From a virus: DNA of 49,480 nucleotides. The position numbers and the translations under genes are program-made. The stretch is taken from IMG/VR virus record IMGVR_UViG_3300021387_000130, positions 1-49,480 of that record; one strand, written 5' to 3'. The notes beneath the pieces were generated by a model, which worked only from the letters and a program-made list of their open reading frames with translations, searched no databases and was not told the DNA's origin. This document shows positions 4,846 through 49,480 of the stretch, piece after piece; the first letter of the stretch is position 1; each line of letters starts with the position of its first letter.

Positions 4846-4985
4846 TTTTTATATATTTTTATTTTTCTTTTTATTCTACAAAAGAATATAAAGAAATAGT
4901 GTAGGATAAAGATGCATTTAGGAAAAGTCTCCTATAGAGTGGTCTCTATAGAAAAGTTTACCGAAATGTATGATAATCCTACACT
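4846..4985. repeat. Element A: AT-rich tract plus an 88-bp quasi-palindrome (core 4898-4985). An inverted copy lies at 27975-28108.
   Basis: The core is agtgtaggat...atcctacact, centred on CTATAGAG-tggt-CTCTATAG. Its arms are distinguishable (alpha ataaagat/gtctc, beta attatcat/ctttt) and occur in the opposite order in element B. Confidence 0.8.
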
Positions 4986-4992
4986 GTAAAAC

Positions 4993-6691: not shown

Positions 6692-7629
6692 CATTTTGTT
6701 ATCGTATAGGCTCTTTATCCTATACTTCTTATGGTTTCCCATAAGTTCAGACTATATCTTCACCCTCTCATAAAGAGTAGGGGTCGGGCACTCGTGTCGG
6801 GATTATTGGTAGTCGTCCTCACCCATTAGTCGTTGAGCCTTCCGTGGTACTTTCATCGACATTCCCACGGCTTGGGTGCTGATTGCCATGCATATTTTTA
6901 TGTTTATATTGTTTCTGAGGTTCTACAAAACAGATTTTTCCGTTTGGAGTCTTCCCTTTTTTGCTCCATGTAAGAATATTGCTATAAGAGATACCTAACT
7001 TCTCTTTCGCTTCTTTAATGGAATTATATGTAGTGTCGCCTATCGTTACTTTTCGCCTTTTCTGACCGTTTGTTTTTTCTGCAATATTAGGATCGCTCAT
7101 AGGATTAGAATCCTTCATTCGCTTTCTTTGGTTTTCAGACTTCATTACATTCTTTTCAGAATATTGATTTCTTAACTCGTCTGTCCACCAAGATTTCACT
7201 CCACCAGTTCCACCTTCGTAGATATTGCAGACACATTGTCCTATTTCTTTAAGTTCGTGTACTCTTATATATTCATAATCAAATGCATCTTGTTCATTTT
7301 CAAAATATTTGATTATTCTGCTTTCACAATCAAATCTTCTAACCATATCGTTAAAAAATCTGTTATGCTTTCGTACTTTGTAACGATTATTGCAACCTTT
7401 TCCTACGTAAATTATTTCTCCTGTTTCTTTAATGAACCATTCATAAACATAAAACATATTTACACCTCCGCATTGTTTTTATATATTATAACACAAAATC
7501 AATGCGAAAACAATATGTTTAGGTTTCCAGCAATTCACCCGATTGCCAGTGCGGATTACGCCGCACAACTGCCTACTGTGTATTTTGTAAATACAAGACT
7601 ATCTTTGGCTTTTTTGATAATCTTCTTTA
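6692..7629 (-). mobile_element. Group I intron carrying a GIY-YIG homing endonuclease ORF
   Basis: Minus-strand RNA hallmarks:
- AAGAUAUAGUC (6750-6760, J8/7-P7) with partner GACUA (6810-6814).
- P8 CCCUACUC/GAGAGGG.
- Hairpin CUUAUGG-GAAA-CCAUAAG (6728-6745).
- Hairpin GUAUAGG/CCUAUAC (6704-6725).
- A terminal G.
- Guide GGCAGUU (7567-7573), which pairs with the exon-1 end GACUGCU including a U-G wobble.
- CACAG (7576-7580), which pairs with exon-2 CUGUG. Confidence 0.7.
6819..7457 (-). CDS. GIY-YIG homing endonuclease (intron-encoded)
   Basis: N-terminal YVYEWFIKETGEIIYVGKG...NRY...R...N...E is the GIY-YIG module. NUMOD3-like repeats and a C-terminal HTH (YNSIKEAKEKLGISYSNILTW) follow. Confidence 0.85.
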   Translation of the reverse strand: MFYVYEWFIKETGEIIYVGKGCNNRYKVRKHNRFFNDMVRRFDCESRIIKYFENEQDAFDYEYIRVHELKEIGQCVCNIYEGGTGGVKSWWTDELRNQYSEKNVMKSENQRKRMKDSNPMSDPNIAEKTNGQKRRKVTIGDTTYNSIKEAKEKLGISYSNILTWSKKGKTPNGKICFVEPQKQYKHKNMHGNQHPSRGNVDESTTEGSTTNG

Positions 7630-8834: not shown

Positions 8835-9211
8835 TCATCCTTTCTGTACCATACATAGACTGGGATTTCCTGACTGCTATTCCAAGAGTCGTAAAGGTCA
8901 CCATTCACAACAGTGGCAACGTGCCCTCCGAAGCCTAGGACAAATGTTCCGTGAGGATTATCTTCCGCAAAGTTTTCCGCAGTGTAGCACTCAGGGCAAG
9001 TATTTGGTATCGCCCTGCGATAAAAGCCATTCTGCCGAAGCACGGAACCCCATACGCTGTCAGAGCTCGGCATATCACCCATGTAATAGCCGTTGGTAAC
9101 AATCAGCATATAGGCTGTTTCCCAGTCAATTTTCAGAGCTTTTGCTACGGCACGGACAGCGCAATCACCTACTGTTCGCCCGGTCGGATTTGGATTGTAT
9201 TTGATATACAT
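8831..9211 (-). CDS. Putative papain-like/C39-like cysteine peptidase-fold protein
   Basis: YNPNPTGRTVGDCAVRAVAKAL (candidate catalytic Cys) and GGHVATVV (candidate His). The start at MYIKY follows GAGGTGG. Confidence 0.4.
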   Translation of the reverse strand: MYIKYNPNPTGRTVGDCAVRAVAKALKIDWETAYMLIVTNGYYMGDMPSSDSVWGSVLRQNGFYRRAIPNTCPECYTAENFAEDNPHGTFVLGFGGHVATVVNGDLYDSWNSSQEIPVYVWYRKDE

Positions 9212-13491: not shown

Positions 13492-13501
13492 ATTCTTCCC
13501 T

Positions 13502-13753
13502 CTAATCCCTTGTGATCGATTTGATTTGTTCGTCCATCATTCCCTGACGTTTTTCAAGCTCGTATACACGCTCGACAATATTGTTATGCTTGGAGACTTC
13601 CTTCTCCAAGCATTCCAATCGATATGATATGAGCACAATATTGTCTTCGTGCTTTTTTTCGCTCTCTTCATGCTGATAATAGTTGTTAATCAGGCACACA
13701 ATCAAAGTGATCACTCCTGATACAACGCCAGTAACAATGGCTGTATAGTCCAT
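13502..13753 (-). CDS. Lysis-associated membrane/coiled-coil protein (XhlA-like architecture)
   Basis: N-terminal TM AIVTGVVSGVITLIVCLI plus a coiled coil. The gene ends in TAG. Confidence 0.45.
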   Translation of the reverse strand: MDYTAIVTGVVSGVITLIVCLINNYYQHEESEKKHEDNIVLISYRLECLEKEVSKHNNIVERVYELEKRQGMMDEQIKSITRD

Positions 13754-13755
13754 GT

Positions 13756-14514
13756 TTACAATGACCTCTCGTTAATGATAGCGTTGACGCCTCTCTTTTT
13801 CAAGAGATTAACCTGCGCCTGCGCCTCCTGCATGGTACGATATGTTTTCTCAAGCAGTACCCGATAGAATTTTTCATCGTTCTCTACAACAGCTTTGAAC
13901 CCTTTGTCACCGATGATCTTCACCTGTCTATCGGAGTTTGTCTTGCGCTCAAATGCACCAAGCTGAACTCTGTATACGGTTATCTTTTTCGGCCTGAGAA
14001 CACTGCCGACTTTTTGCGAACCATATACCGTACTGCCGATCCACTTCTTGAATACTGCATTTTCGCCGGAGCCGTTGCAATAAGCGTGTCCGGTATCGAA
14101 CCACTCATTATCGCCTAAATACATATTGGTATGGTTCATGCTATAATAAGTGACAATATCTCCGAGCTTAATCGTACCATCCTTCAAGCACTGATTAACA
14201 GTCTTTTTGCCTTTAATCGGAACGAGAATGTAATGGTTCAGCATTTCCTCTTTGACAGCTTTAGTTTTGAATACCACATCGCCTCCCCTTTTGCCGTAAA
14301 AACCCCCGACAAAACCGGAAAGCACATCAGCTTCGATTAACGCCCAGATCACGCCCCTTGCACAGTTCGTTCTGCGCAGTGGCTTTTTCTCTGCCTGATC
14401 AAAGGTATCTGCTATTTTGAGCTTGTTCGTGTATGTCCACTTTTTACCGCCCTTAATATCAGCCACGACATCGGCATTCAATCGCTTTGCCGTCTGCACT
14501 GCATTGCTGACCAT
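13756..14514 (-). CDS. Cell-wall hydrolase-like protein with a C-terminal SPOR domain
   Basis: Candidate NlpC/P60-like Cys (RRTNCARGV) and His (MNHTNMY). The C-terminal YRVQLGAFERKTNSDRQV...GFKAVV...YRVLL is a SPOR repeat. Confidence 0.55.
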   Translation of the reverse strand: MVSNAVQTAKRLNADVVADIKGGKKWTYTNKLKIADTFDQAEKKPLRRTNCARGVIWALIEADVLSGFVGGFYGKRGGDVVFKTKAVKEEMLNHYILVPIKGKKTVNQCLKDGTIKLGDIVTYYSMNHTNMYLGDNEWFDTGHAYCNGSGENAVFKKWIGSTVYGSQKVGSVLRPKKITVYRVQLGAFERKTNSDRQVKIIGDKGFKAVVENDEKFYRVLLEKTYRTMQEAQAQVNLLKKRGVNAIINERSL

Positions 14515-14610
14515 ACTGCTTCTCCTTCCGTTTTAATTGAGTTAAAATTGAGTTAAACTCGAACTCCAACTCGATTATATTACATTGCCGATCAATCGTC
14601 CATATCATTT

Positions 14611-14632
14611 TTACTGCACTAAACTCCAACTT
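14611..14632. repeat. Left copy of a perfect 22-bp inverted repeat (partner 15468-15489)
   Basis: ttactgcactaaactccaactt is the exact reverse complement of 15468-15489. It abuts the TAG stop of 14633..15160. Confidence 0.95.
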
Positions 14633-15160
14633 CTATCGTATCCCTTTAAACGCTTTCATTATATTTTGAGCGTGATCGTCCATACACATATCCTCAGAAA
14701 TTTGTGTATTGACAAATATTTTATTATTAGTCGCTAATTCAGTCTGAATTAAAACATCCTGTTTTCTGCGGTATCCATCTTCAACACTAATGATAATTCT
14801 TTTATGCCAGTCAGCCTGGAACCTAGTCTGCATTCGCAGAATATTTCTGCCTAACTCATACATACAAATAGGCTGATCGCTCACTCCTGACGAAAAATAC
14901 ATCGAAAAGATATCGCATTTTTCTAGCATGTCATATTCCCACTTAATCTGCTGACGCGATGCCGATTTATCATTAATTGGGAAATTGTCACGGCGGGGAT
15001 TAAATAGGACAAGTGAGTCATTGACTACACTATAATCATTCTTAACAGTATCAATTACATATTTCTGCCAATCGGGGCAGTTCGTTATTCCTCCAGCCAA
15101 GAAGACGGTGACATCTTTATCATATGGATTGTAATGTTCTGGTGCTGTTATTACTCGCAC
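14633..15160 (-). CDS. Nucleoside 2-deoxyribosyltransferase-like protein (moron in the tail/lysis junction)
   Basis: VFLAGGITNCPDWQ...LFNPRR...QIKWEYDMLEKCD...MYELG matches the Nuc_deoxyrib_tr-like fold signature. It has a GTG start 6 nt after AGGAGG. Confidence 0.5.
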   Translation of the reverse strand: MRVITAPEHYNPYDKDVTVFLAGGITNCPDWQKYVIDTVKNDYSVVNDSLVLFNPRRDNFPINDKSASRQQIKWEYDMLEKCDIFSMYFSSGVSDQPICMYELGRNILRMQTRFQADWHKRIIISVEDGYRRKQDVLIQTELATNNKIFVNTQISEDMCMDDHAQNIMKAFKGIR

Positions 15161-15172
15161 AAATTCCTCCTA

Positions 15173-15793
15173 TTAGTTAGCCACAACATTCACTGTTACC
15201 ACTCTGACTACAGCAGCAAAATTGTCAACAGCATTCGAAGTCGCACGATAAACATTAAAATATATATTCTGATAGTTACCTGTTGCGCCAGAACAAAAAG
15301 CGAATGGAATCACAGCCGAAGAATTACTGGTATAAGCAATGAATATGGCCACAATATATTCGTTCGAAGGTATTGTGCTTTTATCCACGGCTTGAGCACC
15401 TCTCGTGCCGGGAGTTCCGGCAGAAAATGATATATTATCAAACCTTATATTACGCATTGTCAGTTTTAAGTTGGAGTTTAGTGCAGTAATCTGGTCTTGC
15501 AACACCTTGCCCTGCGATGCATCAAGCACCTTCCCCGCCGCTGATGTGGTAACGTTATTTATGATATCTGACTTGGGCACAAGGTCATCGTCAACGGAGT
15601 CCTGCAGTGCGTCAAGTGTAGCTTTCAGAGTGCGATTACTGCCTCCTAAAGAAGAAAGATTATACTGTTCAATGATTGCTTTGGCAAGCTTGGTATAATC
15701 AATCTTCTCCGTATCATTGCCATTATCCACAGGCAGAAAGTCTCCAAGCCCTAATGCCGTACTTCTTTCATTTAGCTCATGTATCTGCTTCAT
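15173..15793 (-). CDS. Tail fibre / receptor-binding-like protein
   Basis: It follows Tal. The N-terminal helical part ends ..QDQITALNSNL and is followed by a beta-rich C-terminal domain. The function is inferred from position. Confidence 0.4.
   Translation of the reverse strand: MKQIHELNERSTALGLGDFLPVDNGNDTEKIDYTKLAKAIIEQYNLSSLGGSNRTLKATLDALQDSVDDDLVPKSDIINNVTTSAAGKVLDASQGKVLQDQITALNSNLKLTMRNIRFDNISFSAGTPGTRGAQAVDKSTIPSNEYIVAIFIAYTSNSSAVIPFAFCSGATGNYQNIYFNVYRATSNAVDNFAAVVRVVTVNVVAN
15468..15489. repeat. Right copy of the perfect 22-bp inverted repeat, inside the fibre-like gene
   Basis: aagttggagtttagtgcagtaa. On the coding strand it encodes ITALNSNL, at the junction of the helical and beta-rich parts. 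Confidence 0.95.
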
Positions 15794-15796
15794 GCA

Positions 15797-15994
15797 TCAA
15801 TCCTCCATGCTCTGTGCGGCATATTCCATCAGCTCATCGATTTTGGTTTTGATTTCCGCATCGGTAACAACCCGGTCAAACCTGTTGTTATCGCTGATGA
15901 TCTTTCCTGTATTTTCATCAACCACGCTGTACGATGCGCTGAGCCTCTTTCCGATAGCATCGTTCCATACTGTAACAGATGTAATCACGTTCAT
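15797..15994 (-). CDS. Hypothetical small structural-module protein
   Basis: 65-aa ORF coupled to the Tal stop. Confidence 0.4.
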   Translation of the reverse strand: MNVITSVTVWNDAIGKRLSASYSVVDENTGKIISDNNRFDRVVTDAEIKTKIDELMEYAAQSMED

Positions 15995-18900
15995 GCTCCA
16001 ATTCTCCTTTCATTGTTTATATCTTCAATGTGTTGCAATCCGATTTCGCCGTAATTTGTCATTCCTTTATCTTCCGACTCATCTAACATCATATTGTAGT
16101 CCTTGAAGCGTAACTGGTCAAAGTCTTTCTGCTTCGCCTTAAGCTCCCATCCAAAAGAAAGTCCGGGAGTTCCGGTAACCACAAAATATCCGGGCTTACG
16201 CTCAGAGACATAGCATTTACCGTCTCCGTATACCTGCAGAAAAATCTGATAGCTATCTAGCGTTACCGTTTCGGCAAAAACAGGATCAACGAAAATTCGG
16301 CAGGTTTCATCTTTTCCAATAATACCTTCGCCAATATCGCCGAACATCGGAGACGGCGTTTCGTAGCAGTACAAGAGCCGTGTGCCATAATCTTTAGTGC
16401 TGACCGCCCTAGGCTTTCCTCCATGAGCAGTTACGGATGTAGTAGCAATCAGGTTCTTGCAATGAATGTTTCCGCCCACAAATAACTCTGATGCCATATT
16501 AACAGGAGTACCAAAACCAACACGCCCATTATCCGTACCGTGAACAGTCATAACCTGTCTGGTTACAGTTTGGCTTGTAGGGCTCGAAGCCATTGCAATT
16601 CTGAAGTCTGAGCCGTTATTTATTATCAAGTCAAGGCACGCCACATACATACCGACATAAGTTTCCCATGAATCGTCATCGGCATGATAATACGTTGGAG
16701 AATAATTGCGTGTAGTAATCCATCCTGCAGTGGGATTAATGTCATAACCAGATGCGGCACTTTTTGTCTTTGCTTCGGTATCCTCAAACCTGAGGTACGA
16801 AGCATCCATCTCAATTTTCCGTGTGTTGCTCTGACTGGTTACTTTTGTGCCAGTAATAGTAGAAGCAGAAATTGCAGATGCTGTAATATCTCCAGAATAC
16901 TGCCCATTTGTTGCTTCCATTGAACCATCAGTCAAAATTTTAAACCGATTATTCGCACTTACAACGCCATTAATGTTGATTTTACTGGCATTAATATTAA
17001 TCGATTCTGCTGATTGATTGATCGAAGATATAACCTCACTTTTTCCGACTTTCTGGGATACAGTGCTGTTTATTCCTGCGGCAGTTATTTGAATTTGCGT
17101 ATTTGCATAACTCTTTGCGTTATCCTCTGCATTGGTTGATGCTGTAGTAATTTCAGTCCTGATACTACTTGCAGTCTGCGTAATCTCCGAATGAGCATAA
17201 TCCTTAGCATTGGTTTCCGCATTGGTTGATGCTGTAGTGATCTCAGTTCTTAGCTGTGTTGCCGTTTGACTGACAAGAGAACGTGCTTCGTCATCGTTGA
17301 TTTTCCTGCCTACCTCTGCACGGATTTCTGTGTCAGTCATTTCCAGAGAAGCAAAGCGATTCTCTGTGTAGCCCTGCTGATAAAGCTCTGTTTCCAGAGT
17401 GATCGTTTCAGTCTTTGATACGAAATACAGCGGATCGCCGTCCTGATCACTAATAACATCTCCAGTATGATCAACCCAGTATTCGGGCTCACCAATGACT
17501 GCCATTTCACACACGACAGTCATTCCGTACTTTGCAGTATTGGTATCAACGCTGACGCTCTTTCCGGTGCCGATAAAATTCTTATCGGCATAATCTTCAC
17601 GCTTTATGTACCATTTAAACTGCGAGTCAAGATATTCGTCTGTTGCCTCAACCCCTGATTTATACACGACAGCATTAAAAGTGGCTACACTTCCGTTTTT
17701 GGTGTACGGAGTCTGGAGCAATATATTGCCGCTTGTAATAGATGATACTTCCTGCTTTGTCGCATAGGAACCCGCAACACTCGCCATGATATCGCCCTGA
17801 GTGACAGTTATAGTCGTTCTTAATGCAGACTCTATGTCATCAGCGTAATTTTTAGCATTGTTATATGCAGTATCAGCATACGTCTGAGCGTTATGCTCCA
17901 CTCTTGCAAGGTCAGCTTGTGTAACTTCACCCTCTTCGCCGGGTTCGATGCTTATGCTGATTTCTCCGGTTTCAAGGTTCCAGTAATTTCTACCCTGACG
18001 ATCTGAGATAATTCCTGCTTTAAGCAGGTTAGCATTGAGCGTTCCGGTATCAATAAAGTCAGCATTCAGATGCCCGTCAATTGTCCATGCATTGGTATAT
18101 GGCCCGTCAAATCCATTCCGGCTGAAGCCTATACCATTCATGTTGATGCGAAGCACATTGGTTGCAGTGGATTTATCGTCAGTATCCATCCAGTAGGCTT
18201 CGTTTGGCTGACCATCAGCGTTGGTGCCTATCACGAAATGACCGCCTGCACCACCTTTAATGAGCTCTGTTGCCGCATCGATTGCCGCCTGCATAACCGA
18301 AGCGGAAACGGCAAACCTTCTCACTGCAGAAAGTGTTGCCGCCTTGATTGTCGCTGACAGTGTAGTCCTCGGCGTTCCAAGCTCCATCCTTGTATATCGC
18401 TCAGCCAATGCATCGTATACAACCTTAACCACCTTTGCAGTGCGGTTAACGTTGAGCTTGGGATGAATGATCGTTACCGTATCGCACAATGCCACTCTTT
18501 GCAGTTCTGCAATAGATTTATATTCTTCTGTCTGCCACAGGGCAACAAAGTTTACCTTGATATTTTCGTTAGCTTCCCAAGGCGCACCATTATTCAGCCT
18601 GCGCAATGCTTCTGCCCTAAGCTGAGTAACTGTCGGTGCGGTATCCCACACTTCAGTCAGGTCAAGCGGAACAATCACAAGCTCTTCTCCGGGCTGTACT
18701 GCGCCGCCTGCTACATATCCTTCGGGCAGATAAACCGAAGTGTTGTCTTCGCTGTTACGCCAATAGGGAGCCACAGCATTATATACCTCGGACTCGTCAT
18801 ATTCCTGTGTGAACTCGCTCAGATTTTTACCATAGCGAATGGTTACGCCGCTGTTGGTTCCCCTGTTCTGATAAAGCTTAACCGTCCATTTATCCCACTC

Positions 18901-19398
18901 ATATTCGCCACCACCATACACATCAAGGATTGAACCTTGACTGCCTCCAAGCAGTTCTCTGATTGATGACGGCACAACAACAGTGAATGTTGCTACTGTA
19001 CTTTTGTCAGTCCAGAAACTGAAGGGATTATCGCTGATATTATTGGTCTTAAACCCTGCAAGGGCTTGCACAACGGTCTGCGCTCTATAAGGCTTGACAA
19101 TAATGTTGCCAAGCCTATAACTAATATGATGCGCATAAAACGTGACAAGCCCATTGAGCGGCGCTGAATGACGATAAATAATAAACGGCTGAATATCCTT
19201 CCGGTCATCATGGATGGTACCGATAATTCGCCCCTCAACGAGTTGTGAGAAATGCTTCCCATCCACAGGGTACTGGAATTCGCATTCATAGATGCCGTTC
19301 CGTTCTTCAGTAACTATGCATTTTGTTGCCTCTGCAAGCCTGCCAAGACCGTTTGTATCAAAGCTAACTTCGGCGCTATCGTATAAAATAGGTATCAT
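15991..19398 (-). CDS. Tail-associated lysin/tip protein (Tal; phage minor structural protein N-terminal family)
   Basis: MIPILYDSAEVSFDTNGLGRLAEATKCIVTEERNGIYECEFQYP is the typical prophage tail endopeptidase/Tal N-terminus. The protein is 1135 aa and contains a 90-bp internal duplication near 17128-17250. Confidence 0.7.
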   Translation of the reverse strand: MIPILYDSAEVSFDTNGLGRLAEATKCIVTEERNGIYECEFQYPVDGKHFSQLVEGRIIGTIHDDRKDIQPFIIYRHSAPLNGLVTFYAHHISYRLGNIIVKPYRAQTVVQALAGFKTNNISDNPFSFWTDKSTVATFTVVVPSSIRELLGGSQGSILDVYGGGEYEWDKWTVKLYQNRGTNSGVTIRYGKNLSEFTQEYDESEVYNAVAPYWRNSEDNTSVYLPEGYVAGGAVQPGEELVIVPLDLTEVWDTAPTVTQLRAEALRRLNNGAPWEANENIKVNFVALWQTEEYKSIAELQRVALCDTVTIIHPKLNVNRTAKVVKVVYDALAERYTRMELGTPRTTLSATIKAATLSAVRRFAVSASVMQAAIDAATELIKGGAGGHFVIGTNADGQPNEAYWMDTDDKSTATNVLRINMNGIGFSRNGFDGPYTNAWTIDGHLNADFIDTGTLNANLLKAGIISDRQGRNYWNLETGEISISIEPGEEGEVTQADLARVEHNAQTYADTAYNNAKNYADDIESALRTTITVTQGDIMASVAGSYATKQEVSSITSGNILLQTPYTKNGSVATFNAVVYKSGVEATDEYLDSQFKWYIKREDYADKNFIGTGKSVSVDTNTAKYGMTVVCEMAVIGEPEYWVDHTGDVISDQDGDPLYFVSKTETITLETELYQQGYTENRFASLEMTDTEIRAEVGRKINDDEARSLVSQTATQLRTEITTASTNAETNAKDYAHSEITQTASSIRTEITTASTNAEDNAKSYANTQIQITAAGINSTVSQKVGKSEVISSINQSAESININASKININGVVSANNRFKILTDGSMEATNGQYSGDITASAISASTITGTKVTSQSNTRKIEMDASYLRFEDTEAKTKSAASGYDINPTAGWITTRNYSPTYYHADDDSWETYVGMYVACLDLIINNGSDFRIAMASSPTSQTVTRQVMTVHGTDNGRVGFGTPVNMASELFVGGNIHCKNLIATTSVTAHGGKPRAVSTKDYGTRLLYCYETPSPMFGDIGEGIIGKDETCRIFVDPVFAETVTLDSYQIFLQVYGDGKCYVSERKPGYFVVTGTPGLSFGWELKAKQKDFDQLRFKDYNMMLDESEDKGMTNYGEIGLQHIEDINNERRIGA

Positions 19399-20099
19399 AG
19401 TTCATACCACCTCGGCGTGATATCGATTCTCGTTATCCCTGAGCCTAAAACAACATTATTATTTCCGGGCTTCAAAACTGGAAATGTTAATCCGGTAACC
19501 TGCACATATGCATTCTTGGATGTAGCCCCTTTATATGCCTCCATGATATCACAGTCAATATCAGTATAGGAGTCTGCTTCTGTGATTGTTACCGTGATAT
19601 TTCCGATGCCGAAGGAACCAGTTCCGTATACCCTGAGAAGTGGCTTCGCTTCCTGCAATGTGGGATTAGATACAACACCAGTCTCGGTCAAGCTAGTCAC
19701 ACTTTCGCCACTGACAAGAAACCTTTGTGGCTTTCGTGAGAACTCAATCACTGCTTTTGCCATGCTCCTGTCCGGCGTGAACTCAGGAACAATATCTCTG
19801 GATATATACGCCATGTAAAATTCATTCGGCTTAATGTCATCTGAAAGCCTTGCATACCCGATTATAGAGGACATATAAGAGCGAAAAGCGGTCATATTCG
19901 CCTCTGCATTTTCATGGATGATCACATCATAGGTATGCGAAACATTATTTCGATACCCCTGCGATGTGATCAACGCCCCGTTTCTGCCTGGAATATTTGA
20001 GGCTATATATTCATGCTTTGTGCTGTTGTCGATCTGCCGAAAAAAGCATTCTGCTCCAAAAGTGGATAACGCTCTTCCCGCAAAAGTCACGTTACTCAT
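19395..20099 (-). CDS. Distal tail protein (Dit)
   Basis: It lies between the tape measure and Tal. The MSNVTFAGR start overlaps the TMP stop (ATGA). The sequence looks like the phage tail family. Confidence 0.6.
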   Translation of the reverse strand: MSNVTFAGRALSTFGAECFFRQIDNSTKHEYIASNIPGRNGALITSQGYRNNVSHTYDVIIHENAEANMTAFRSYMSSIIGYARLSDDIKPNEFYMAYISRDIVPEFTPDRSMAKAVIEFSRKPQRFLVSGESVTSLTETGVVSNPTLQEAKPLLRVYGTGSFGIGNITVTITEADSYTDIDCDIMEAYKGATSKNAYVQVTGLTFPVLKPGNNNVVLGSGITRIDITPRWYEL

Positions 20100-22633
20100 A
20101 CATAAGCCGCCTTTCTCTGGGACTCCCAACGCAGGAATACATCCTGCACCTTTTCGGCGATTTCTTCCGCATCCTGCCCCGGCTGAGTATACAGATTGAT
20201 AGTTACGTTGTTCGTGTTATTATTGGTATCTCTTGCGGCTTCACGGATGTCTCGCATCAGATTTTCATGACCATATACGATTTCTCCGCCGGGTCTATCG
20301 CCAAACCCATACGGCCCCATTATCGTTGGCTTAGTAAACATATAAGGATTGTCATAAGCCTTTGCAAACCAATCAGTCACCGGAACCCAAGTCACGCCAA
20401 AGCCAGTAGGAATACTGCCAATAACCGGAATGTCAGTCCATCTCGTTACTGAGATTTTGGGAAGCTTGATAACGATGTTGGAAAAATCAAACAAGCCTGC
20501 AAAGAATGTTCCTACATCGAAAAATGCGCCTTTAATCGCTTCCCAGATTGATGTGCCAAGCTCTGCCCAATCAATCTCCTTGATTGCAGTAACAACTTCA
20601 TCAAACTTACCTTTGAACCAACCGCTTATCCCTGTTACTGTATCACCGAATGCACCAGTGATCCAAGCCCACACATCAGCACCAACCTGCGCCCAGTCAA
20701 TCTCTTTGATTGCCGTAACAGCCTGATTAAAATGTATTGTTGCCCAGTTGCCAAGAGCTTCAAAGATGCCAAGCAGAGTCGTCCAGACATATTCACCGAC
20801 TGCCGCCCAATCAATTTCCTTGATTGCAGTGATTGCCAGATTAAATGTCGTGGTTGCCCATGTGCCGATTGTTGAGAATGCCGCAACAATGAAATCCCAT
20901 ATGGTTGTGCCTACAGCCGCCCAGTCAATTTCTTCTATCGCAGTCACAGCCGCCTCAAAGGTTTCCTTTGCCCATGTTGCGATTGTCGCAAAAGCGGCGA
21001 TAATGAAGTTCCAGATAGTTGTACCAAGTCCTGCCCAGTCAATCTTTCCTATGGCAACCTTCGCCGCCTCGAATTTTGTTTTTGCCCAGATCAAAAGGTT
21101 ATTAAATGCAGATGTGATGAAATTCCAGATAGCAGTGCCAAGTCCTGCCCAGTCGATCTCTGAGATTGCAGTCCAGATATCACCAAATAGCGCCGTAAAG
21201 AACTCAATAGCGGCACTAAATGCGCTTTTGATGAACTCCCAGATTGCAGTACCTAAGCCCGCCCAGTCAATGTTCTCAATCGCACCCTTAACGCCTTCTT
21301 CGTCACCTTCGCCACCGCCGAACAGACTTTTGAACCACGAAACCACGGCAGAAAATGCGCTCTGAATTGAGCTCCATACGTTATGCCCCACTTCTGCCCA
21401 GTCAATAGACTTTATTGTTTCAGCGGCATTGTTAAACAAGTCAGTAAACCAACTGACCAATCCCGCAAAAGCTCCAGTAATTCTGTTCAGCACTTCTGTG
21501 CCGACGGCTTGCCAGTCAACTTTCGATGCTTCTTCTTTAATCTTGTTATACACGCTAATGATGACCTGCGGCACTTCGTTAATTACTGTAGCCACGAGTG
21601 TCCACGCAGACTCTAGCAATTTCGGGGCAAGGTCTGCAATGATACCCGGCAGTTTCTCAATAATGATCGGCACAATCTCTTTGATTGCGACACCGATATT
21701 CTGCAGGATGCCCCCGATAATTGGAACAATGTTACCAATATATGTTCCCGCAGTCTCTACCAAATCTCCGACAGCAGTCTTGGTTTCTTCGCTTCCTCTA
21801 CCAAAGGCAATAGTCAGGTTATCCCAAGCGGCTCCAACAGCACTTAAAGAACCTTGAATAGTTCCATCAGCCTCATGCATCGTTGTTCCGGTAATGCCCA
21901 TTTCAGTCTGGACAACATGAATAGCCTCAACGATGTCGGAATAGCTCGAAATATCGTACTTGTACCCGGAAATTTCTTCCGCCTTGTCAAGCAATTGTTG
22001 CATACCTTCTTTTGTGCCCGCGAAACCAAGAGCCAGATTATCAAGCATCGTAAAGTTGCCACGACTGAAACCCCTGTATGCATCCTGCACAGACTGCATA
22101 TTGGTGCCCATCTTGTTGACGTTATCCGACATATCCGTGATGGACATATCCATCAGGTCAGCCGCTTTTTCCTGATCACCCCCAAGGGAATTAATCAAAG
22201 CCGCCGCCGACTGAATAGATGTCTCCATGTATGCATTTGCGCTTATTCCTGCAGTCTTGAAGGCTTTTTCGGAGTTTTTCAGGACAGTTGACTCTGCCTT
22301 TTTCAGCTTATCATATTCGCTTTGAGCTTCGGAAACACTCTTTCCTACGCTTTTCGCATATTCCTCAAGACTCATGCCGCCTGTGCCGAAAAGCGTTTCT
22401 ACACCACCGACCAACTGCTCATAGTTTCCGTAACTATCTACGGCTTTCTTTGCAAGCACACCAACAGCGGCACCTGCGGCACCAACCCCTGTGGCTACGC
22501 CTTTCGCCGCAGTGCCGAAAGCCCCTTTTAATTTCTCACCTAGTCCTTTTCCCTCAGACTCGGCTTCTTCAACACCTTTCTCATATTCGCTCTTGTCCAA
22601 GGTGATCTTGGCAACGAGATTAAATAAATCCAT
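20096..22633 (-). CDS. Tape measure protein
   Basis: 845 aa, helical and Ala/Gly-rich, with internal repeats. It follows the chaperone pair. Confidence 0.85.
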   Translation of the reverse strand: MDLFNLVAKITLDKSEYEKGVEEAESEGKGLGEKLKGAFGTAAKGVATGVGAAGAAVGVLAKKAVDSYGNYEQLVGGVETLFGTGGMSLEEYAKSVGKSVSEAQSEYDKLKKAESTVLKNSEKAFKTAGISANAYMETSIQSAAALINSLGGDQEKAADLMDMSITDMSDNVNKMGTNMQSVQDAYRGFSRGNFTMLDNLALGFAGTKEGMQQLLDKAEEISGYKYDISSYSDIVEAIHVVQTEMGITGTTMHEADGTIQGSLSAVGAAWDNLTIAFGRGSEETKTAVGDLVETAGTYIGNIVPIIGGILQNIGVAIKEIVPIIIEKLPGIIADLAPKLLESAWTLVATVINEVPQVIISVYNKIKEEASKVDWQAVGTEVLNRITGAFAGLVSWFTDLFNNAAETIKSIDWAEVGHNVWSSIQSAFSAVVSWFKSLFGGGEGDEEGVKGAIENIDWAGLGTAIWEFIKSAFSAAIEFFTALFGDIWTAISEIDWAGLGTAIWNFITSAFNNLLIWAKTKFEAAKVAIGKIDWAGLGTTIWNFIIAAFATIATWAKETFEAAVTAIEEIDWAAVGTTIWDFIVAAFSTIGTWATTTFNLAITAIKEIDWAAVGEYVWTTLLGIFEALGNWATIHFNQAVTAIKEIDWAQVGADVWAWITGAFGDTVTGISGWFKGKFDEVVTAIKEIDWAELGTSIWEAIKGAFFDVGTFFAGLFDFSNIVIKLPKISVTRWTDIPVIGSIPTGFGVTWVPVTDWFAKAYDNPYMFTKPTIMGPYGFGDRPGGEIVYGHENLMRDIREAARDTNNNTNNVTINLYTQPGQDAEEIAEKVQDVFLRWESQRKAAYV
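20490..21520 (-). repeat. About 9 tandem coding repeats of about 37 aa within the tape measure gene
   Basis: The recurring unit is (I/V)DWAxxGTxIWxFIxxAFxxxxxW. Boundaries are approximate. Confidence 0.7.
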
Positions 22634-26754: not shown

Positions 26755-27345
26755 TTAGTTCTCTCCTTTCCTTCCGTAAATTGACTCATAGTGTTTCTGT
26801 GCAACAATAGCCGCTCTACTAGGCGTCCTGCCACCGCCTGAGCTACCCTCAGGAGGCGTATTCGTGTCTGCGCCCTTCACACCTTCAGTCACAATAAAGT
26901 CTTTCCATTCTTCTTTTGCTTCTTTTTCCAGAGCATCGGCATTTTTGATGTTTCCATCCTTATCAAGCTCGATTGTGTCAAACTTGCTGACCCGGATGAT
27001 TGTACCGATTCTCTTCTCTGACACTCCTGCCTTTTTCAGCAATTCGGCGTATGCGTCTTTCTTCTTGCGCATAAGCTCTCTCGCATCCACATCGGCCTTG
27101 TAGTCATCGTACTCTTTCCGCAAATCCTCATACTGTTTCTTATAAGGGTTTTCGCCATTCTGTTCTGCCGCTTTTTTCAGGTCATCCAGTTCCTTCTGGA
27201 CAGCAGGCAGAGCATCATGTGCCTCTTTGTATTTATCTCGCTCTTCCTTCAGCGCATTTACAGTATCGGTATGTGCTTCGATGATCTCATCAATCTTTTC
27301 CGCTTCAACCCCCAGAGCGGATAGAAATTTTCTTGTCAGTGCGAT
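26755..27345 (-). CDS. Scaffolding protein with no canonical start codon (candidate ATC 27345 or CTG 27339)
   Basis: The coiled-coil frame ..LTRKFLSALGVEAEKIDEIIEAHTDTVNALKEERDKY.. is open from 27348. There is no ATG, GTG or TTG before the TTG at 27123. The N-terminus looks like a typical scaffold start (M-x-RKFL..LG). Confidence 0.6.
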   Translation of the reverse strand: MALTRKFLSALGVEAEKIDEIIEAHTDTVNALKEERDKYKEAHDALPAVQKELDDLKKAAEQNGENPYKKQYEDLRKEYDDYKADVDARELMRKKKDAYAELLKKAGVSEKRIGTIIRVSKFDTIELDKDGNIKNADALEKEAKEEWKDFIVTEGVKGADTNTPPEGSSGGGRTPSRAAIVAQKHYESIYGRKGEN

Positions 27346-27875
27346 AAGTCATCACTCCCTTCTTCATATCGCCATACATAACCACCTGCTGTTTTACTCC
27401 ATCCGGTCAAACAATTATTGATTGCCGTTCGTGAAATTCCAGTCAGGTTACTTGCATATACAATACTTTTATACTCAGCAATTTTTTTGCCATTTACTTT
27501 ATATTGGCTAATATGCTTTCCTTTGCTGTATTCAACATTGTATTGCCGAGAACACCATTCAAGATTTTCCACATGATTATTTAAAGAATTTTCGTCCTTA
27601 TGATTTACTTCCGGATAATCATTTAGATTTTGTATAAAAGCTTTTGCAACGAGTCGATGTACAGATTCATGATGAATATTTCCCTCATTATCTGTAAGGA
27701 TCACAAATTCATATTGTGGCTGTCCTTTATATCCTCTTTTGCCTTTTTTAAGCTTTTTCCCTCTCCTATGCTGTTCCCATGCGCCATGTACGGTTTTTGG
27801 AAGTGAAAATACTTCGCCTTCGTCACTCACAAGATACCGCCCTTCGTATCCCGGAATTTCCTTCCAGAGTGCCAT
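27336..27875 (-). CDS. HNH homing endonuclease (NUMOD4 + HNH + C-terminal HTH)
   Basis: WKEIPGYEGRYLVSDEGEVFSL is a NUMOD4 motif. VNHKDENSLNNHVENLEWC is the HNH motif. The C-terminus has SIVYASNLTGISRTAINNCL. Confidence 0.85.
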   Translation of the reverse strand: MALWKEIPGYEGRYLVSDEGEVFSLPKTVHGAWEQHRRGKKLKKGKRGYKGQPQYEFVILTDNEGNIHHESVHRLVAKAFIQNLNDYPEVNHKDENSLNNHVENLEWCSRQYNVEYSKGKHISQYKVNGKKIAEYKSIVYASNLTGISRTAINNCLTGWSKTAGGYVWRYEEGSDDLSH

Positions 27876-27974: not shown

Positions 27975-28108
27975 AGTGTAGTATTATCATGCATTTAGGA
28001 AAACTTTTCTATAGAAAAACTCTCTATAGAGACTTTCCTATAATGTATCTTTATACTACATTTTTTCATGCAGAAAATAAAGAAAAATAAAAGAAATATA
28101 AAGAATAT
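27975..28108. repeat. Element B: 87-bp quasi-palindrome (27975-28061) plus AT-rich tract; inverted copy of element A
   Basis: The core is agtgtagtat...atactacat, with two TCTATAGA octamers (28008-28015 and 28023-28030). Its reverse complement aligns to 4846-4985 at roughly 85 percent identity in the core, by eye. Confidence 0.8.
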
Positions 28109-32621: not shown

Positions 32622-33941
32622 TTACTCCAATACATCAGCAAATCCATCTTTTGTTTTTCCTATAATTCCAGAATATCCCGGCATAAATGTCTTGCTTTCG
32701 TCATAAATATATACGATATCGCCGTTTTCATCAAGACCATTTGGCTTCATAACTCCACCAAACATAACAAATGGATTTTGTCCTGCCCTTGGATTATTCC
32801 AAAGATAATGCAGATAATCTTTCATGGTTGAATTATAAAATCTTGCTCTTTTCTCACTTGAATTTGTATTAAACCCTTCAGCCTTATTGAACATGATTTT
32901 ATCAAGATAATGCATATCACTCTCGATTTCGCTCCAATGCACAACGCCGTTTCTCCGGCATAATTGCAATGCATAAGAAAAATTCCCTCTGGAGTAATTA
33001 TAATCAGGATTTAAACCACAGCAACAGCCATTTGCGCAGAGCTCTTTAAAATGCGCATCAGAGACGTAAAATCTCATACCGAACTTATCACAAAGCTCTT
33101 TCATTTCATACATGTATCGCTCTTTTATTTTGCGATTAAGCCGGAGATACCCACTGCCTCTTGAATGCTTCTTATAAAAGTCCACAATGTCAAAGCCACA
33201 GCATTCACTTAAAACGTTATAATGTTCTCTTGCGTTATTTATCGATCGGGCTTCAAGACAAAAGAACTCCGTTGTTACTGCATCCGCACCTGCATCATGA
33301 GCGGCAACAATCAGATCCTTATAATCTTTCGAGGAAACGCCAATAATAAACGGTCTGAGCCGCAATGTTGCGCCGCCCTTGTTTAATGTTGTGTATTCAT
33401 GTATGGCATTAATCCGCTCCTGCGGAGAAGGAACTCCGACTTCGATCTTCTTCGCTTTTTCTGCATCAAGAGTAATGATACTGAATTTTACATTCCAATT
33501 ATCCTGTCCTCTGAACAGCTCTCGATACCGTTCATCATGAACCCACCAAGTACTTTTTGTGGAAAAACAAATTGGATAATTAATTTCCTTGAAAAACTTC
33601 AACAATTCAAGTGTAACGCCGTACTTTCGTTCAAATTCATCAAACTGATCCGAAAGCCCGCCCCATTGAAAAACTTTTCTTGCACGAACATAATCACCAA
33701 ACTGACTGCTGTCAGGATCAGTAAAAATGGCTTTTACTTTTTCCGGGTTTACACTCTTTACAACCTTTGCAAGATAATCATCTTTTGAACTGCCAATCCC
33801 ACGCTGATACTGTGAGAAGCAATATACACAGCCGAAAGAGCAGTTGCTGTATGTATCAAAGGTCATTGGCATTGTACAGTCTGCGATTTCTCCAGACCAA
33901 CGTGGACTGCCATAATTTTGCTTTAGTTTTTTATCGCTCAT
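32622..33941 (-). CDS. Radical SAM enzyme, spore-photoproduct-lyase/DNA-photolyase-like (COG1533-like)
   Basis: Carries the CxxxCxxC motif NCSFGCVYCF near the N-terminus and a second Cys cluster CANGCCCG. The protein is 439 aa. Confidence 0.65.
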   Translation of the reverse strand: MSDKKLKQNYGSPRWSGEIADCTMPMTFDTYSNCSFGCVYCFSQYQRGIGSSKDDYLAKVVKSVNPEKVKAIFTDPDSSQFGDYVRARKVFQWGGLSDQFDEFERKYGVTLELLKFFKEINYPICFSTKSTWWVHDERYRELFRGQDNWNVKFSIITLDAEKAKKIEVGVPSPQERINAIHEYTTLNKGGATLRLRPFIIGVSSKDYKDLIVAAHDAGADAVTTEFFCLEARSINNAREHYNVLSECCGFDIVDFYKKHSRGSGYLRLNRKIKERYMYEMKELCDKFGMRFYVSDAHFKELCANGCCCGLNPDYNYSRGNFSYALQLCRRNGVVHWSEIESDMHYLDKIMFNKAEGFNTNSSEKRARFYNSTMKDYLHYLWNNPRAGQNPFVMFGGVMKPNGLDENGDIVYIYDESKTFMPGYSGIIGKTKDGFADVLE

Positions 33942-34711
33942 ATTATTTGAATAACTCCACTGTAATCAGGCTTTACTTTCACATAACGGCTGTATTCTGC
34001 GCAAAGCCTATCGAGATCGTTTCTTATTGCATCTGTTTGATACGTTTCAAACAATCCGCCTTTGTAATTTCTGTTTGGCTTTTTGCTTGTTGCGATATCA
34101 TTTTTTCTTATCGTCAATCCTCCAGAAGATATGATTCTCAGCTGAATCTCATAATCTTCAACAGTACGATACGTTTCGTTATAATATGTTTTCTTGTCAA
34201 TTATATGACCGACTAATCCTCCCTGAAATAGCTTGTTTACGCTAAACTCTCCATCCACAGAAAGCCTAGTCTTTGCAAACATTGCATTTCCAGTGGGAGA
34301 ACAGCCCCATATAACGCTTCCAATCTGTTCCGTTTCGGAGAAAGACTTTATTACATCCTCTTCAAAAACCTTCTTGTCGTATATCTTTCTTGATGTTGCC
34401 TTTGTCTGACCTTTTTCCGCAAACAGCTTCATTTTTGTAAAGCTCAGCACATCATCATCAAGCATACACACCCAGTCTCCGACAGAGTACCCATCGTACC
34501 GAAGAACGTTATTCCTGTTTACGGAGCAACCCTTTCCTTCAACAAGAACAAAGTTTATCTCAGGATGAAGCACTTTATATGCTTCGCAATCGTTTCTGTC
34601 TTGCAGAAAAACAGTAATGTCGCTCCTTTCAATTCCAAGCTCAAGAAGCGTTCTTATCGTGACGCATTCCGGGCGATGATAACTTATGATCGCATAATTT
34701 ATTTTCTTCAT
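33938..34711 (-). CDS. GT-A-fold glycosyltransferase-like protein
   Basis: N-terminal YAIISYHRPE is a Rossmann-like strand. A DxD-type motif occurs in CMLDDDVLSF. Confidence 0.45.
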   Translation of the reverse strand: MKKINYAIISYHRPECVTIRTLLELGIERSDITVFLQDRNDCEAYKVLHPEINFVLVEGKGCSVNRNNVLRYDGYSVGDWVCMLDDDVLSFTKMKLFAEKGQTKATSRKIYDKKVFEEDVIKSFSETEQIGSVIWGCSPTGNAMFAKTRLSVDGEFSVNKLFQGGLVGHIIDKKTYYNETYRTVEDYEIQLRIISSGGLTIRKNDIATSKKPNRNYKGGLFETYQTDAIRNDLDRLCAEYSRYVKVKPDYSGVIQII

Positions 34712-35436
34712 GATTCTTCCGCCGCTTTAATGTCGCTTGCGATATAGATCACTTTCAGCTTCTCTTCCTGCGGAACTCCGAGCAGGTCTTTCACGATCTT
34801 TTCTTCTTCGTCATTCCGATAGATGATGATGACGCGCCTTGTCACCAATTCAGCGGCATGCTTCGCATACGCCGCCAAATCCTCTTTTGCGGCTTCTTTA
34901 GGAATATACGGAGGAGTTTCCGCCTGACCGCCAAAAACGCCTTGTTGCCCATTATACGGACTTACAGGCACATATTCGCCGCTGTCTGCCTGCTCAACAG
35001 GACGAACTGCTTCCGCCTGCGGAGTGTACTGAGGGATTTCAGGCGAATCATCGATCTGAAGCTCAAGAATTTCCGCTTCATTAAAACCAAAATCAGTCAT
35101 ATCTAAGCCCGGAAGATCACCAATTTCTTCTACAAGAAGCTCAATATCCCAATCACTTTCATTGGTTTTATTATCTGCAATTCTAAATGCTTTTACCTGT
35201 TCCTCCGTAAGATCATCAGCCATAACCACAGGCACAACAGTCATTCCCAAGAGCTTTGCCGCCGCAAGTCTGCCATGCCCGACAATAATCTCCATATTCT
35301 TGTCCAGTACAAGCGGCTGACGAAAACCAAATTCCTTAATGCTGTTCGCAATCGCCTTTACCTGATCTTCAGGATGCTTTTTCGCATTCTTTTTATAAGC
35401 CTTGATTTCACTTATTTTTACCTGTTTTACGTCCAT
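34708..35436 (-). CDS. ParB/Srx N-terminal-domain protein with an uncharacterised C-terminal half
   Basis: KISEIKAYKKNAKKHPEDQV...GFRQPLVL...IVGHGRLAAAKLLG is a ParB-like nuclease/NTPase domain. Confidence 0.65.
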   Translation of the reverse strand: MDVKQVKISEIKAYKKNAKKHPEDQVKAIANSIKEFGFRQPLVLDKNMEIIVGHGRLAAAKLLGMTVVPVVMADDLTEEQVKAFRIADNKTNESDWDIELLVEEIGDLPGLDMTDFGFNEAEILELQIDDSPEIPQYTPQAEAVRPVEQADSGEYVPVSPYNGQQGVFGGQAETPPYIPKEAAKEDLAAYAKHAAELVTRRVIIIYRNDEEEKIVKDLLGVPQEEKLKVIYIASDIKAAEES

Positions 35437-37194: not shown

Positions 37195-37611
37195 TCATGT
37201 TCCGGTACTACCGAAGCCATTGTTTCCACGTTCAGTCTCATCCATTGTATAAACGACATGGGGAATTGGGGTAATAATCGGAAGAATAACAAGCTGTGAT
37301 ATCTTGTCACCCTTCTCAACCATCATATCACATTTTCCGTGATTATACAACTTAATTATAATCGAACCTGTGTAGCCGGAATCAATCACTCCTTCGCTCA
37401 GCAAGCTGTACTTTACATTTAAGCCGCTCTTGCTTTTGAGCATACCAACATATCCTTCTGGTATCTCTATATGCACTCCAGTGTCGATTACAGCCGCTTC
37501 ACCTGCCTTTATAATAACTTCTATAGTGCTTCTCAAATCAAGCCCTGCATCGTCCTTGTGGGCTCTCTCAGGCATATATGCGCCAACGTCAAGCACAATA
37601 TTGATATTCAT
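37195..37611 (-). CDS. dut: dUTP diphosphatase
   Basis: Trimeric dUTPase motifs are present: DAGLDLRS, IDSGYTGSI, GDKISQLV and C-terminal RGNNGFGSTG. Confidence 0.9.
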   Translation of the reverse strand: MNINIVLDVGAYMPERAHKDDAGLDLRSTIEVIIKAGEAAVIDTGVHIEIPEGYVGMLKSKSGLNVKYSLLSEGVIDSGYTGSIIIKLYNHGKCDMMVEKGDKISQLVILPIITPIPHVVYTMDETERGNNGFGSTGT

Positions 37612-38150
37612 TGCCGCCCTCCGTTCACATCCAGATTTATCAACGAACCAGTTGCGCCAATCTGCTTTTGGTATTTGCCGGAATACGGATTTTCCACACG
37701 CTCTCCTGTCTTTGCAAACACAAGCTGAGCTACCCTTGTTCCTGCAGTCAGTTCTATGGCATATCGCCCTGCATTGTAAAGCTCCAAGGTGATCTGCCCT
37801 TCAAAGCCCGGATCGACCCATCCCGCATTCTGCACAAAAAGCCCCAACCTACCGATAGATGATCTGCCCTCTACAAATGCTGTCAGGTTACTTGGCAGTT
37901 TAATATACTCCATCGTTGTTGCCAGAACAAAATCCCCGGGAGCAATTGTGAATTTGTCCGCAACGATATCCGTATACTTAGCTCCTTCTGAAAATCTGAT
38001 GACTGGTTCGAAAGAATGTGAAAGCATACAGAATGTGTTGCCGATTCTGACATCCACGCTTGCAGGCTCTATTTGACTCTCTTCCATCGGCGAAATACAA
38101 AGCTCGCCTGTTTCAATCAACTTCTTGATTTCTCCATCTGATAAAATCAT
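37608..38150 (-). CDS. dcd: dCTP deaminase
   Basis: MILSDGEIKKLI..., VDVRIGN, GRSSIGRLGLFVQNAGWVDPGFEGQITLELYN. Confidence 0.9.
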   Translation of the reverse strand: MILSDGEIKKLIETGELCISPMEESQIEPASVDVRIGNTFCMLSHSFEPVIRFSEGAKYTDIVADKFTIAPGDFVLATTMEYIKLPSNLTAFVEGRSSIGRLGLFVQNAGWVDPGFEGQITLELYNAGRYAIELTAGTRVAQLVFAKTGERVENPYSGKYQKQIGATGSLINLDVNGGRQ

Positions 38151-49455: not shown

Positions 49456-49480
49456 GTTTTTACGATACAATATCTCGCAC
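49456..49480. repeat. Terminal direct repeat (copy of 1-25)
   Basis: Identical 25-mer at both ends of the window. Confidence 0.9.

Follow-up and report, generated by a model that had tools for sequence, protein, structure and literature searches.

A perfect inverted repeat bracketing a phage tail-fibre head: probable orphan derivative of a tyrosine-recombinase head shufflon

Introduction

The virus genome IMGVR_UViG_3300021387_000130 of IMG/VR (positions 1 to 49,480, the whole stretch analysed here and hereafter referred to as the window) carries a perfect 22-bp inverted repeat, one arm of which lies inside a tail-fibre gene and the other beside a gene for a nucleoside-deoxyribosyltransferase-like (NDT-like) protein. 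The question raised by this locus is what such a repeat does, or once did, at the boundary of a receptor-binding head. In a preliminary description made from the sequence alone, three answers were offered: the relic of an invertible or exchangeable receptor-binding cassette, a footprint of the acquisition of the NDT-like gene, and a long-range RNA duplex in the polycistronic transcript. We consider it probable that the pair descends from a tyrosine-recombinase head shufflon of the kind known as Rin and is now an orphan with one head, its arms marking exchange boundaries and being probably inert in this phage.

The inverted repeat in the window

The sequence TTACTGCACTAAACTCCAACTT at 14611-14632 (plus strand) was confirmed to be the exact reverse complement of 15468-15489, with identity at 22 of 22 positions and 835 nt between the arms; arms and interior together form an 879-bp unit. 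When the window was searched with up to three mismatches, these two copies of the 22-mer and nothing further were recovered, and the next-longest perfect inverted match was 16 nt. A 22-mer match did not occur in any of 100 dinucleotide-preserving shuffles of the window, which upholds the initial statement that a chance origin is essentially excluded. No match was obtained when nucleotides 13500-16500 were compared with GenBank phages by blastn.

The 206-aa fibre gene (15793..15173, minus strand) is divided by the repeat. Its constant N-terminal part (aa 1-101; 15490..15793), which belongs to a tail fibre or receptor-binding protein, runs up to the arm at 15468..15489, hereafter the expression-site arm, whose minus strand reads TTACTGCACTAAACTCCAACTT and encodes fibre codons 102-109 (ITALNSNL). 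This arm forms the junction with the exchangeable head, that is, the C-terminal part of about 97 aa and the stop codon (15173..15467). The sole Pfam match of the fibre, Phage_fiber_rpt (aa 77-107), ends where the arm is placed. The arm therefore lies inside the fibre gene, as first described; its further placement between a helical N-terminal and a beta-rich C-terminal part was checked only weakly, because the AlphaFold2 model, with a helix at 92-108 followed by strands, had a predicted local distance difference test score (pLDDT) of 37 and is unreliable. A better sign of a domain boundary was that homology to the fibre of the closest relative ends at codon 106/107. The head itself had no homologue but itself among 5.8 billion proteins and none in any retrieved locus, and its GC content was 0.39 vs 0.435 for the genome.

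The second arm, hereafter the distal arm (14611..14632, plus strand), consists of the identical 22 bp on the opposite strand and is non-coding. As had been noted, it abuts the stop codon of the NDT-like gene, ending one base before the stop at 14633-14635. That gene (15160..14633, minus strand, 175 aa, Nuc_deoxyri_tr2) occupies the slot that in relatives holds a second, oppositely oriented head. The native junctions of the bracketed segment read ...CAAGACCAGATTACTGCACTAAACTCCAACTTAAAACTGACAATGCG and ...GGGATACGATAGAAGTTGGAGTTTAGTGCAGTAAAAATGATATGG, and those expected upon its inversion would read ...CAAGACCAGATTACTGCACTAAACTCCAACTTCTATCGTATCCC and ...CGCATTGTCAGTTTTAAGTTGGAGTTTAGTGCAGTAAAAATGATATGG.

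A family of sites in other phage fibre loci

The preliminary description had treated a lack of conservation in related genomes as a reason to regard the repeat as a recent scar. On the contrary, the repeat was widely conserved: the site, with the consensus WTAsTGmACTAAACTCCAAnWT and read in frame as xLNSN, was found in at least 15 unrelated gut-phage fibre loci (hereafter the LNSN family). In a sequence logo built from 27 distinct arms, information was confined to positions -6 to +15, which is exactly the 22 bp of the window, and the window matched at all 22. The site is asymmetric: conservation is strong in its ACTAAACTCCAA half, and dyad symmetry is limited to a short partial match (TTAGTG/CACTAA). 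Loci were collected in two scans, one of IMG/VR with the arm core and one of JGI metagenomes with the distal arm and its outer flank, which yielded L040, L058, L059, L051, L024, L111, L113, L114, L117, and L118; single IMG/VR matches to the 16-mer core were mostly attributable to chance and were discarded. A scan of IMG/VR for related loci using the SPOR-domain protein encoded downstream of the repeat found none.

The closest relative of the window is L003 (ENA ERZ12302820), whose flanking DNA was 90-94% identical and whose constant fibre part was 96% identical at the aa level and 90% at the nt level. It encodes a 305-aa fibre and no NDT-like gene. In the comparison of the window with L003, homology is lost within the upstream arm, after ...TTACTGCACTAAAC (...CACTAAAC), and is regained from the downstream arm onwards; L003 is without the cassette of the window but shares the outer half of each window arm. 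L003 has an inverted pair of its own, complementary at 19 of 22 positions, which extends from its second ALNSN motif to the same post-stop position and brackets the last ~100 codons, a single head.

As a separate observation on this fibre, the first ALNS motif of L003 (8300-8325; TTACTGCACTAAACAGCAGT) resembles the AGC allele of L122-L124 (ACACTAAACAGCAAT), and relatives may carry remnants of more than one site allele within a single gene.

The same layout of head and NDT-like gene as in the window was found in L004-L010 (nine contigs), which are temperate and otherwise unrelated: the Tal protein, the fibre N-terminal part, the head, and the lysis cassette all differ from those of the window, and an inverted pair complementary at 18 of 19 positions is located at the corresponding positions. 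The possibility that the heads of the window and L004 are diverged copies of one cassette was rejected, as no detectable similarity exists between them.

In other members of the family, the bracketed segment holds alternative heads. L040, L058, and L059 contain a 709-nt segment with two heads in opposite orientations, and inversion of this segment in silico joins the constant part in frame, via ...LNS-, to the second head of about 115 aa. The two-head layout recurs in L113, L114, L117, and L118. Three arms were found in L111, and four arms (+, -, +, -) with four heads in L051. The expressed head of L114 is the silent head of L113, and that of L004 is the silent head of L117; likewise, L024, a relative of L051 that retains only a 63-aa fragment of the recombinase described below, expresses a homologue of the L051 silent head 2b. 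L040, L113, and L117 share one constant part and one downstream flank and carry three wholly different inter-arm segments. Thus, at least two in-frame alternative C-terminal cassettes are present in L040, L058, L059, L113, L114, L117, L118, and L051, as well as in L122-L125 (see below). The first of the proposed answers, the relic of an invertible or exchangeable cassette, is well supported by these loci, since the same site brackets two-head segments and multi-head shufflons elsewhere.

Concerted evolution of the arms was apparent at the codon level. Between loci, the arms vary in codons but not in the encoded peptide (CTAAACTCCAAT, CTAAACAGCAAT, CTAAATAGTAAT; TCC-AAT, AGC-AAT, AAT-AGT-AAT), whereas all three or four arms of any one locus use identical synonymous codons. 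Because synonymous codons are uniform within loci and different between them, a constraint at the DNA level is indicated, and selection on the protein cannot explain the pattern; a need for DNA identity between recombining sites can. Brackets around a single head recur in L003 and between arms 1 and 2 of L111, and in both loci the headless arm is substituted at an otherwise invariant position (+1 in L003, +12 in L111 arm 2), a pattern that the decay of unused sites would produce.

L111 also contains, between arm 2 and its silent head (2275-2400), a stretch of ~120 nt with long complementary ends (ATCTGCGG...CCGCAGAT), which looks like a structured RNA; nothing was found in it by ARAGORN or Rfam.

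These comparisons also bear on a different origin, in which the arms would be the terminal inverted repeats of a small transposable element carrying the head and the NDT-like gene, or a one-off rearrangement or assembly scar. A perfect inverted repeat does flank a segment of lower GC content (0.38 vs 0.435 for the genome), as would suit such an element. The segment encodes no transposase, however, and the outer flanks (...GACCAGA and AAATGAT...) show no target-site duplication. No copy of the 879-bp unit was found at an unrelated site, and the exact 22-mer, like the conserved outer flank, had no match in IMG/VR. The upstream arm is part of a conserved coding frame, the outer arm halves are shared with the cassette-less L003, and the arrangement recurs in many unrelated phages. 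A scar is further opposed by the identity of three independent contigs of the window phage at this locus. We regard this origin as having a negligible chance of being correct.

The Xer-like recombinase

A gene for a 328-aa tyrosine recombinase is situated between the units of L051, where arm C abuts its stop codon. This enzyme was 41% identical (E = 1e-85) to a 329-aa enzyme of L004, and both are Xer-like, matching the NCBIfam models for XerA, XerC, and XerD and the PDB structures of XerC-like, XerA, and XerD proteins. To avoid circularity, IMG/VR was also scanned by the recombinase alone, without the arm pattern. The closest relatives from that scan were those of L122/L123 and L124 (83% identity) and of L125 (66%), and in each of L122-L125 three arms flank the recombinase gene, each arm being followed by an in-frame head ORF of ~100 aa that starts with xLNSN. 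The more distant relatives in L126-L128 (38-39%) were without such arms. None of the relatives in GTDB (about 40% identity; a Lachnospiraceae metagenome-assembled genome, Mycoplasmopsis, Ureaplasma, Mitsuokella, and Clostridium tyrobutyricum) carried the arm core, and these are therefore uninformative on the site.

Two cultured phages encode further relatives of the shufflon recombinase (33-35%) between the last tail gene and the holin gene, in both cases annotated as 'integrase': Clostridium phage phiCp-D (L181; MW478291, 21639-22616) and Terrisporobacter phage TPELB_ph1 (L182; PP197244, 17645-18640), the latter with a separate large integrase elsewhere. No convincing inverted repeats were recognised in the AT-rich sequence of either phage.

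On this basis, a mechanism can be proposed for the family. A short asymmetric site, in frame as xLNSN, would start each head cassette, with the cassettes oppositely oriented, and a Xer-like tyrosine recombinase would catalyse conservative site-specific inversion between oppositely oriented LNSN sites. Inversion would thereby join the constant N-terminal part (the shaft) of the fibre to another receptor-binding head. The crossover placement suggested at the outset by analogy with Mu and P1 is well supported as to position; the recombinase in relatives, however, is of the tyrosine (Xer-like) and not the serine type.

The architecture of these loci also bears on the RNA duplex. In that proposal, the arms of the late polycistronic transcript would anneal into a duplex of 22 bp with 835 nt enclosed, and this structure would be an RNase III or translation-control element. 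The duplex would have -34.7 kcal/mol if the arms were co-transcribed, no terminator-like site was found between them on the transcribed (minus) strand, and one compensatory-looking change distinguishes the window from L004 (GCA/TGC vs GAA/TTC). Against this, both arms fit one DNA consensus whatever their partner arm, loci may have three or four arms, and cassettes that are silent and lack a promoter, some of them located downstream of the recombinase gene, also bear arms. In the shufflon loci, moreover, the arms are in frame with oppositely oriented head ORFs that are usable solely after DNA inversion. Rfam gave no match, and any duplex can be seen as a by-product of transcription through an inverted pair of sites. 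The RNA proposal is thus not supported, and we hold it to be very improbable.

The passenger gene and the chimeric distal arm

The NDT-like protein matched the PF15891 profile (Pfam 1.2e-16; 61.4 bits vs a gathering cut-off of 30). Its nearest solved structure was 4mcj, an uncharacterised protein (1.7e-7), in which a glutamate aligns with that of the ...CMYELGR... stretch. No match was obtained with PADLOC or NCBIfam, and no link to fibre biology was found. The protein was 97% identical in aa sequence to that encoded in the same slot, directly after the fibre gene, of L004-L010. More than 1600 homologues were identified, and those at 70-82% identity are located in early or accessory small-gene clusters of other phages, without arms. 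The position of the gene within a fibre bracket in two unrelated phages is therefore ascribed to secondary capture.

The distal arm was found to be chimeric. Its inner 15 nt (AAGTTGGAGTTTAGT) and the NDT-like gene match L004, with 95.7% nt identity over 556 aligned columns, whereas its outer 7 nt (GCAGTAAAAATGATATGG...) and the next ~50 nt match L003, and also L111 arm 2 at 89% over 64 nt. Since the inner and outer parts match different phages, the distal arm is a recombination junction of modules with different origins. The idea of an acquisition footprint is partly supported: the homology of the NDT-like gene to L004 ends inside the arm, but the other boundary of the shared stretch is at the ribosome-binding site of the gene, not at an arm. 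The idea that the arm travels with the NDT-like gene was rejected, given that homologues in early clusters have no arm and L003 has an arm without the gene.

This chimerism has to be weighed together with the possibility that the sites are used in trans. In a lysogen with a Xer-like recombinase, the lytic phage could swap its head and cargo with the prophage by a double site-specific crossover, as a natural recombinase-mediated cassette exchange, or could invert the segment, which would switch off the head and the NDT-like gene; both arms would then be kept intact by selection, enabling the gain of new heads and cargo. The pair is indeed intact at 22 of 22 positions, across exactly the informative positions of the site, and the NDT-like gene with the inner half of the arm is nearly identical, as given above, to that of a temperate phage that encodes the recombinase, with the junction inside the arm. 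The three different inter-arm segments of L040, L113, and L117 between a shared constant part and downstream flank, and the single-head brackets of L003 and L111, would also fit. However, ordinary homologous recombination at short conserved arms leaves the same footprints and could be promoted by the phage's own module of AAA_24 ATPase, PD-(D/E)XK nuclease, and DUF669 protein. In addition, the far end of the NDT transfer does not coincide with an arm, the headless arms of L003 and L111 are decaying, and no intermediate of exchange or inversion was seen among the contigs retrieved. Use in trans is thus viewed as unlikely, although it deserves more weight than an RNA element or a transposon.

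Beyond the distal arm, a degenerate third arm-like copy (gttaaactcgaactccaactcg) was observed at 14552..14573 (plus strand), in the same orientation as the distal arm and ~50 nt from it. Its core is GAACTCCAAC, and it is kept in L003 (about 8990-9010) and L111 (2255-2285). It may represent an accessory site for binding, or else the start of a further cassette that has decayed. Between the two, a promoter-like TGGACG-17-TATAAT (14574..14602, minus strand) matching the consensus lies just downstream of the distal arm and ahead of the SPOR, holin, and lysin genes; the consensus match was at or below shuffle expectation, and the region was 89% identical to L111:2207-2270. Arm, promoter-like stretch, and third copy together make up a module of 64 nt, whose conservation between the window and L111 is 89%.

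State of the repeat in the window phage

The window has a constant fibre N-terminal part that ends in an in-frame crossover site and two family-matching sites in inverted orientation; a second head and a recombinase are missing. Reading inward from the distal arm yields just ...LNSNFYRIPLNAFIIF*, antisense to the 3' end of the NDT-like gene, and hence no alternative C-terminal cassette. No integrase, resolvase, or other recombinase was detected in the window by Pfam and PHROGs searches of ORFs of at least 175 aa or by tblastn with the L051 and L004 recombinases, and a cognate Xer-like invertase is thus lacking. Because there is one head, a headless distal arm, and no encoded recombinase, the repeat is most likely inert in this phage alone, and the pair appears to be non-functional at present. 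The window would have retained the expression-site arm in the fibre gene with one head, a passenger gene would have replaced the silent head, and the distal arm would have lost its head; the arms would now mainly record the exchange of heads and cargo with related phages.

Several points weigh against the view that the pair derives from a head shufflon and is now idle. No inverted form of the window was found in the three contigs known of this phage, all of which have one orientation, and no inverted variant was found at any other locus, including the L004-type contigs retrieved and the three contigs of the L040 type. Inversion would be proved directly by a fibre that expresses head 2, but the only protein recovered when one was sought had 115 aa and was in the silent form. 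The Xer-like gene of L004 is 2.9 kb away from the arms, and the sequenced flanks of the L040/L113 group contain a 380-aa integrase and no Xer-like enzyme; that a Xer-like enzyme acts on LNSN sites is something we infer from sequence. The invariance of the core is partly circular, as the loci were partly found by the arm core, although this does not affect the partner arms or the loci found through the recombinase. Lastly, for a relic without selection, a pair intact at 22 of 22 positions comes as something of a surprise.

Two other types of variation system were considered and rejected. A diversity-generating retroelement does not fit, since the repeat is inverted, not direct, and no reverse-transcriptase domain was present among the scanned ORFs. 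A serine-invertase switch of the Gin/Cin/Pin/Min type does not fit either: Pfam and PHROGs gave no Resolvase-family match in the window, the enzymes of relatives are tyrosine recombinases, and the site is not a 26-bp dyad.

The LNSN family, with its 19-22-bp in-frame site (xLNSN), would span two-head inverters, three-arm loci, a four-head shufflon, and decayed one-head forms, and predicts that many uncultured phages of the gut change their host range by phase variation. It occurs in siphophages whose hosts are probably gut Clostridia. The LNSN junction would be an exact natural swap point for receptor-binding heads, useful for engineering, and non-fibre passenger genes can ride within head segments. 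For the window phage, the element is probably a fossil, with a small direct biological consequence unless it is used in trans; if that were so, it would provide a site-specific route for the exchange of host range and accessory genes between virulent and temperate phages.

Other features of the genome

The first 25 nt of the window (GTTTTTACGATACAATATCTCGCAC, 1-25) recur at its end (49456-49480), and the sister contigs are 48.7 and 49.3 kb, which is consistent with a circular assembly and a complete genome of about 49.45 kb. Exact look-ups of a 65-aa protein and the SPOR-domain protein recovered just the three contigs of this phage; the source samples carry the accessions ENA ERZ12302816 and SRR873601. 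The genome is of lytic type and encodes a helicase, a D5-type primase, a PD-(D/E)XK nuclease, an AAA_24 ATPase domain protein, and a DUF669 protein, in addition to DNA-modification genes, a terminase, a portal, and a capsid protein. The nearest cultured relatives of its Tal protein were from phages of Acutalibacteraceae, Ruminococcus, and Oscillospirales. Rfam, ARAGORN, and PADLOC gave no matches.

The genes around the repeat are all on the minus strand and comprise a distal siphovirus tail module followed by a lysis module. The former consists of Dit (20129..19395), a Tal-like tail-tip protein of 1135 aa (19398..15991), the 65-aa gene between Tal and the fibre, and the fibre gene. After the NDT-like gene, a 118-nt spacer is followed by genes for the SPOR-domain protein, an 83-aa protein, a holin, and a 449-aa endolysin. 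Inside the Tal gene (17092-17250), a sequence of 69 nt is directly repeated at a distance of 90 nt with 75% identity; the two copies encode repeated TEITTASTNAE.NAK.YA units.

Three homing-endonuclease-like genes were observed at 6819-7457, 27336-27875, and 48679-49380 (a PHROG homing endonuclease, an HNH/NUMOD protein, and a GIY-YIG protein). A non-coding element of ~130 nt occurs twice (4857-4990 and 27975-28092), 23 kb apart and in opposite orientation; its arms measure 41 nt (90%) and 33 nt (79%). Both copies are themselves long imperfect palindromes (AGTGTAGGAT...TCTATAGAG and CTCTATAGA...ATCCTACACT) with promoter-like hexamers, and one adjoins an HNH homing-endonuclease gene. The element may be an origin-like sequence or a promoter/operator present in two copies. 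Further, the regions 32622-35436, 37608-38150, and 40560-41267 encode radical-SAM-like, TET-associated glycosyltransferase (TAGT), ParB_N-domain, and dCTP deaminase-like proteins and a DNA methyltransferase-like PHROG. This cluster suggests DNA hypermodification, which could bear on the retention of a nucleoside-transferase-like gene.

Comparison with known systems

The invertible segments G of Mu (Gin), C of P1 (Cin), and those of e14 (Pin) and p15B (Min) resemble the locus in that inverted repeats lie at the boundary of the constant and variable parts of a fibre gene, and inversion swaps the receptor-binding C-terminal part. A co-oriented second gene in the segment, U/U' in Mu and the NDT-like gene in the window, is a likeness by position only, as the NDT-like protein is not a fibre chaperone. 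Gin, Cin, Pin, and Min are serine invertases that act on 26-bp dyad sites with a 2-bp core and depend on a Fis-bound enhancer, whereas the LNSN family has a tyrosine recombinase and an unrelated, asymmetric site.

A further comparison is the shufflon of R64 and other IncI plasmids. Its recombinase, Rci, is a tyrosine recombinase with asymmetric sites, of which only inverted ones recombine, and multiple segments supply alternative C-termini of an adhesin. The likeness to the LNSN family extends to the enzyme type, the asymmetry of the sites, and the alternative adhesin C-termini; the adhesin, however, is the plasmid-encoded PilV and not a phage fibre, and the sfx sites are unrelated in sequence. 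For use in trans, the logic is that of engineered cassette exchange with inverted lox or FRT sites, in which a cassette between identical inverted sites can be inverted or exchanged but not excised. That system is artificial, whereas natural exchange in the window phage is a proposal.

Tail-fibre genes with programmed inversions form an established class (PMC9881135). Shufflons of fibre heads that use a tyrosine recombinase were described in 2018, at that time as the first in phages (PMC6109161), and Eggerthella lenta prophages were subsequently noted to have them as well (PMC8778435). The Rin shufflon of Bifidobacterium breve and Bifidobacterium longum prophages has a XerD-like invertase and 11-bp rix sites (Mavrich et al., 2018; PMC6109161). 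The LNSN family, in the layout of L051 and L122-L125, is similar to Rin in three respects: a constant N-terminal part of the receptor-binding protein is combined with several variable C-terminal cassettes whose orientation alternates; each cassette begins with a short, asymmetric site for crossover; and a XerD-like tyrosine recombinase without an arm-type binding domain is encoded beside the cassettes. The likeness is one of layout. The two differ in their sites (rix, TTCCCTAACCC, vs the LNSN consensus) and in their hosts, which are Actinobacteria for Rin vs probably Clostridia for the LNSN family. No description of the LNSN-site family was found in the literature searched, and its sequence features point to a second family of tyrosine-recombinase fibre-head shufflons. 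The window differs from Rin itself in that it lacks an invertase, has a single head, and carries a non-fibre passenger between its arms; because two defining features, the invertase and the alternative cassette, are absent, it is best described as an orphan derivative with cargo and not as a member of the shufflon class.

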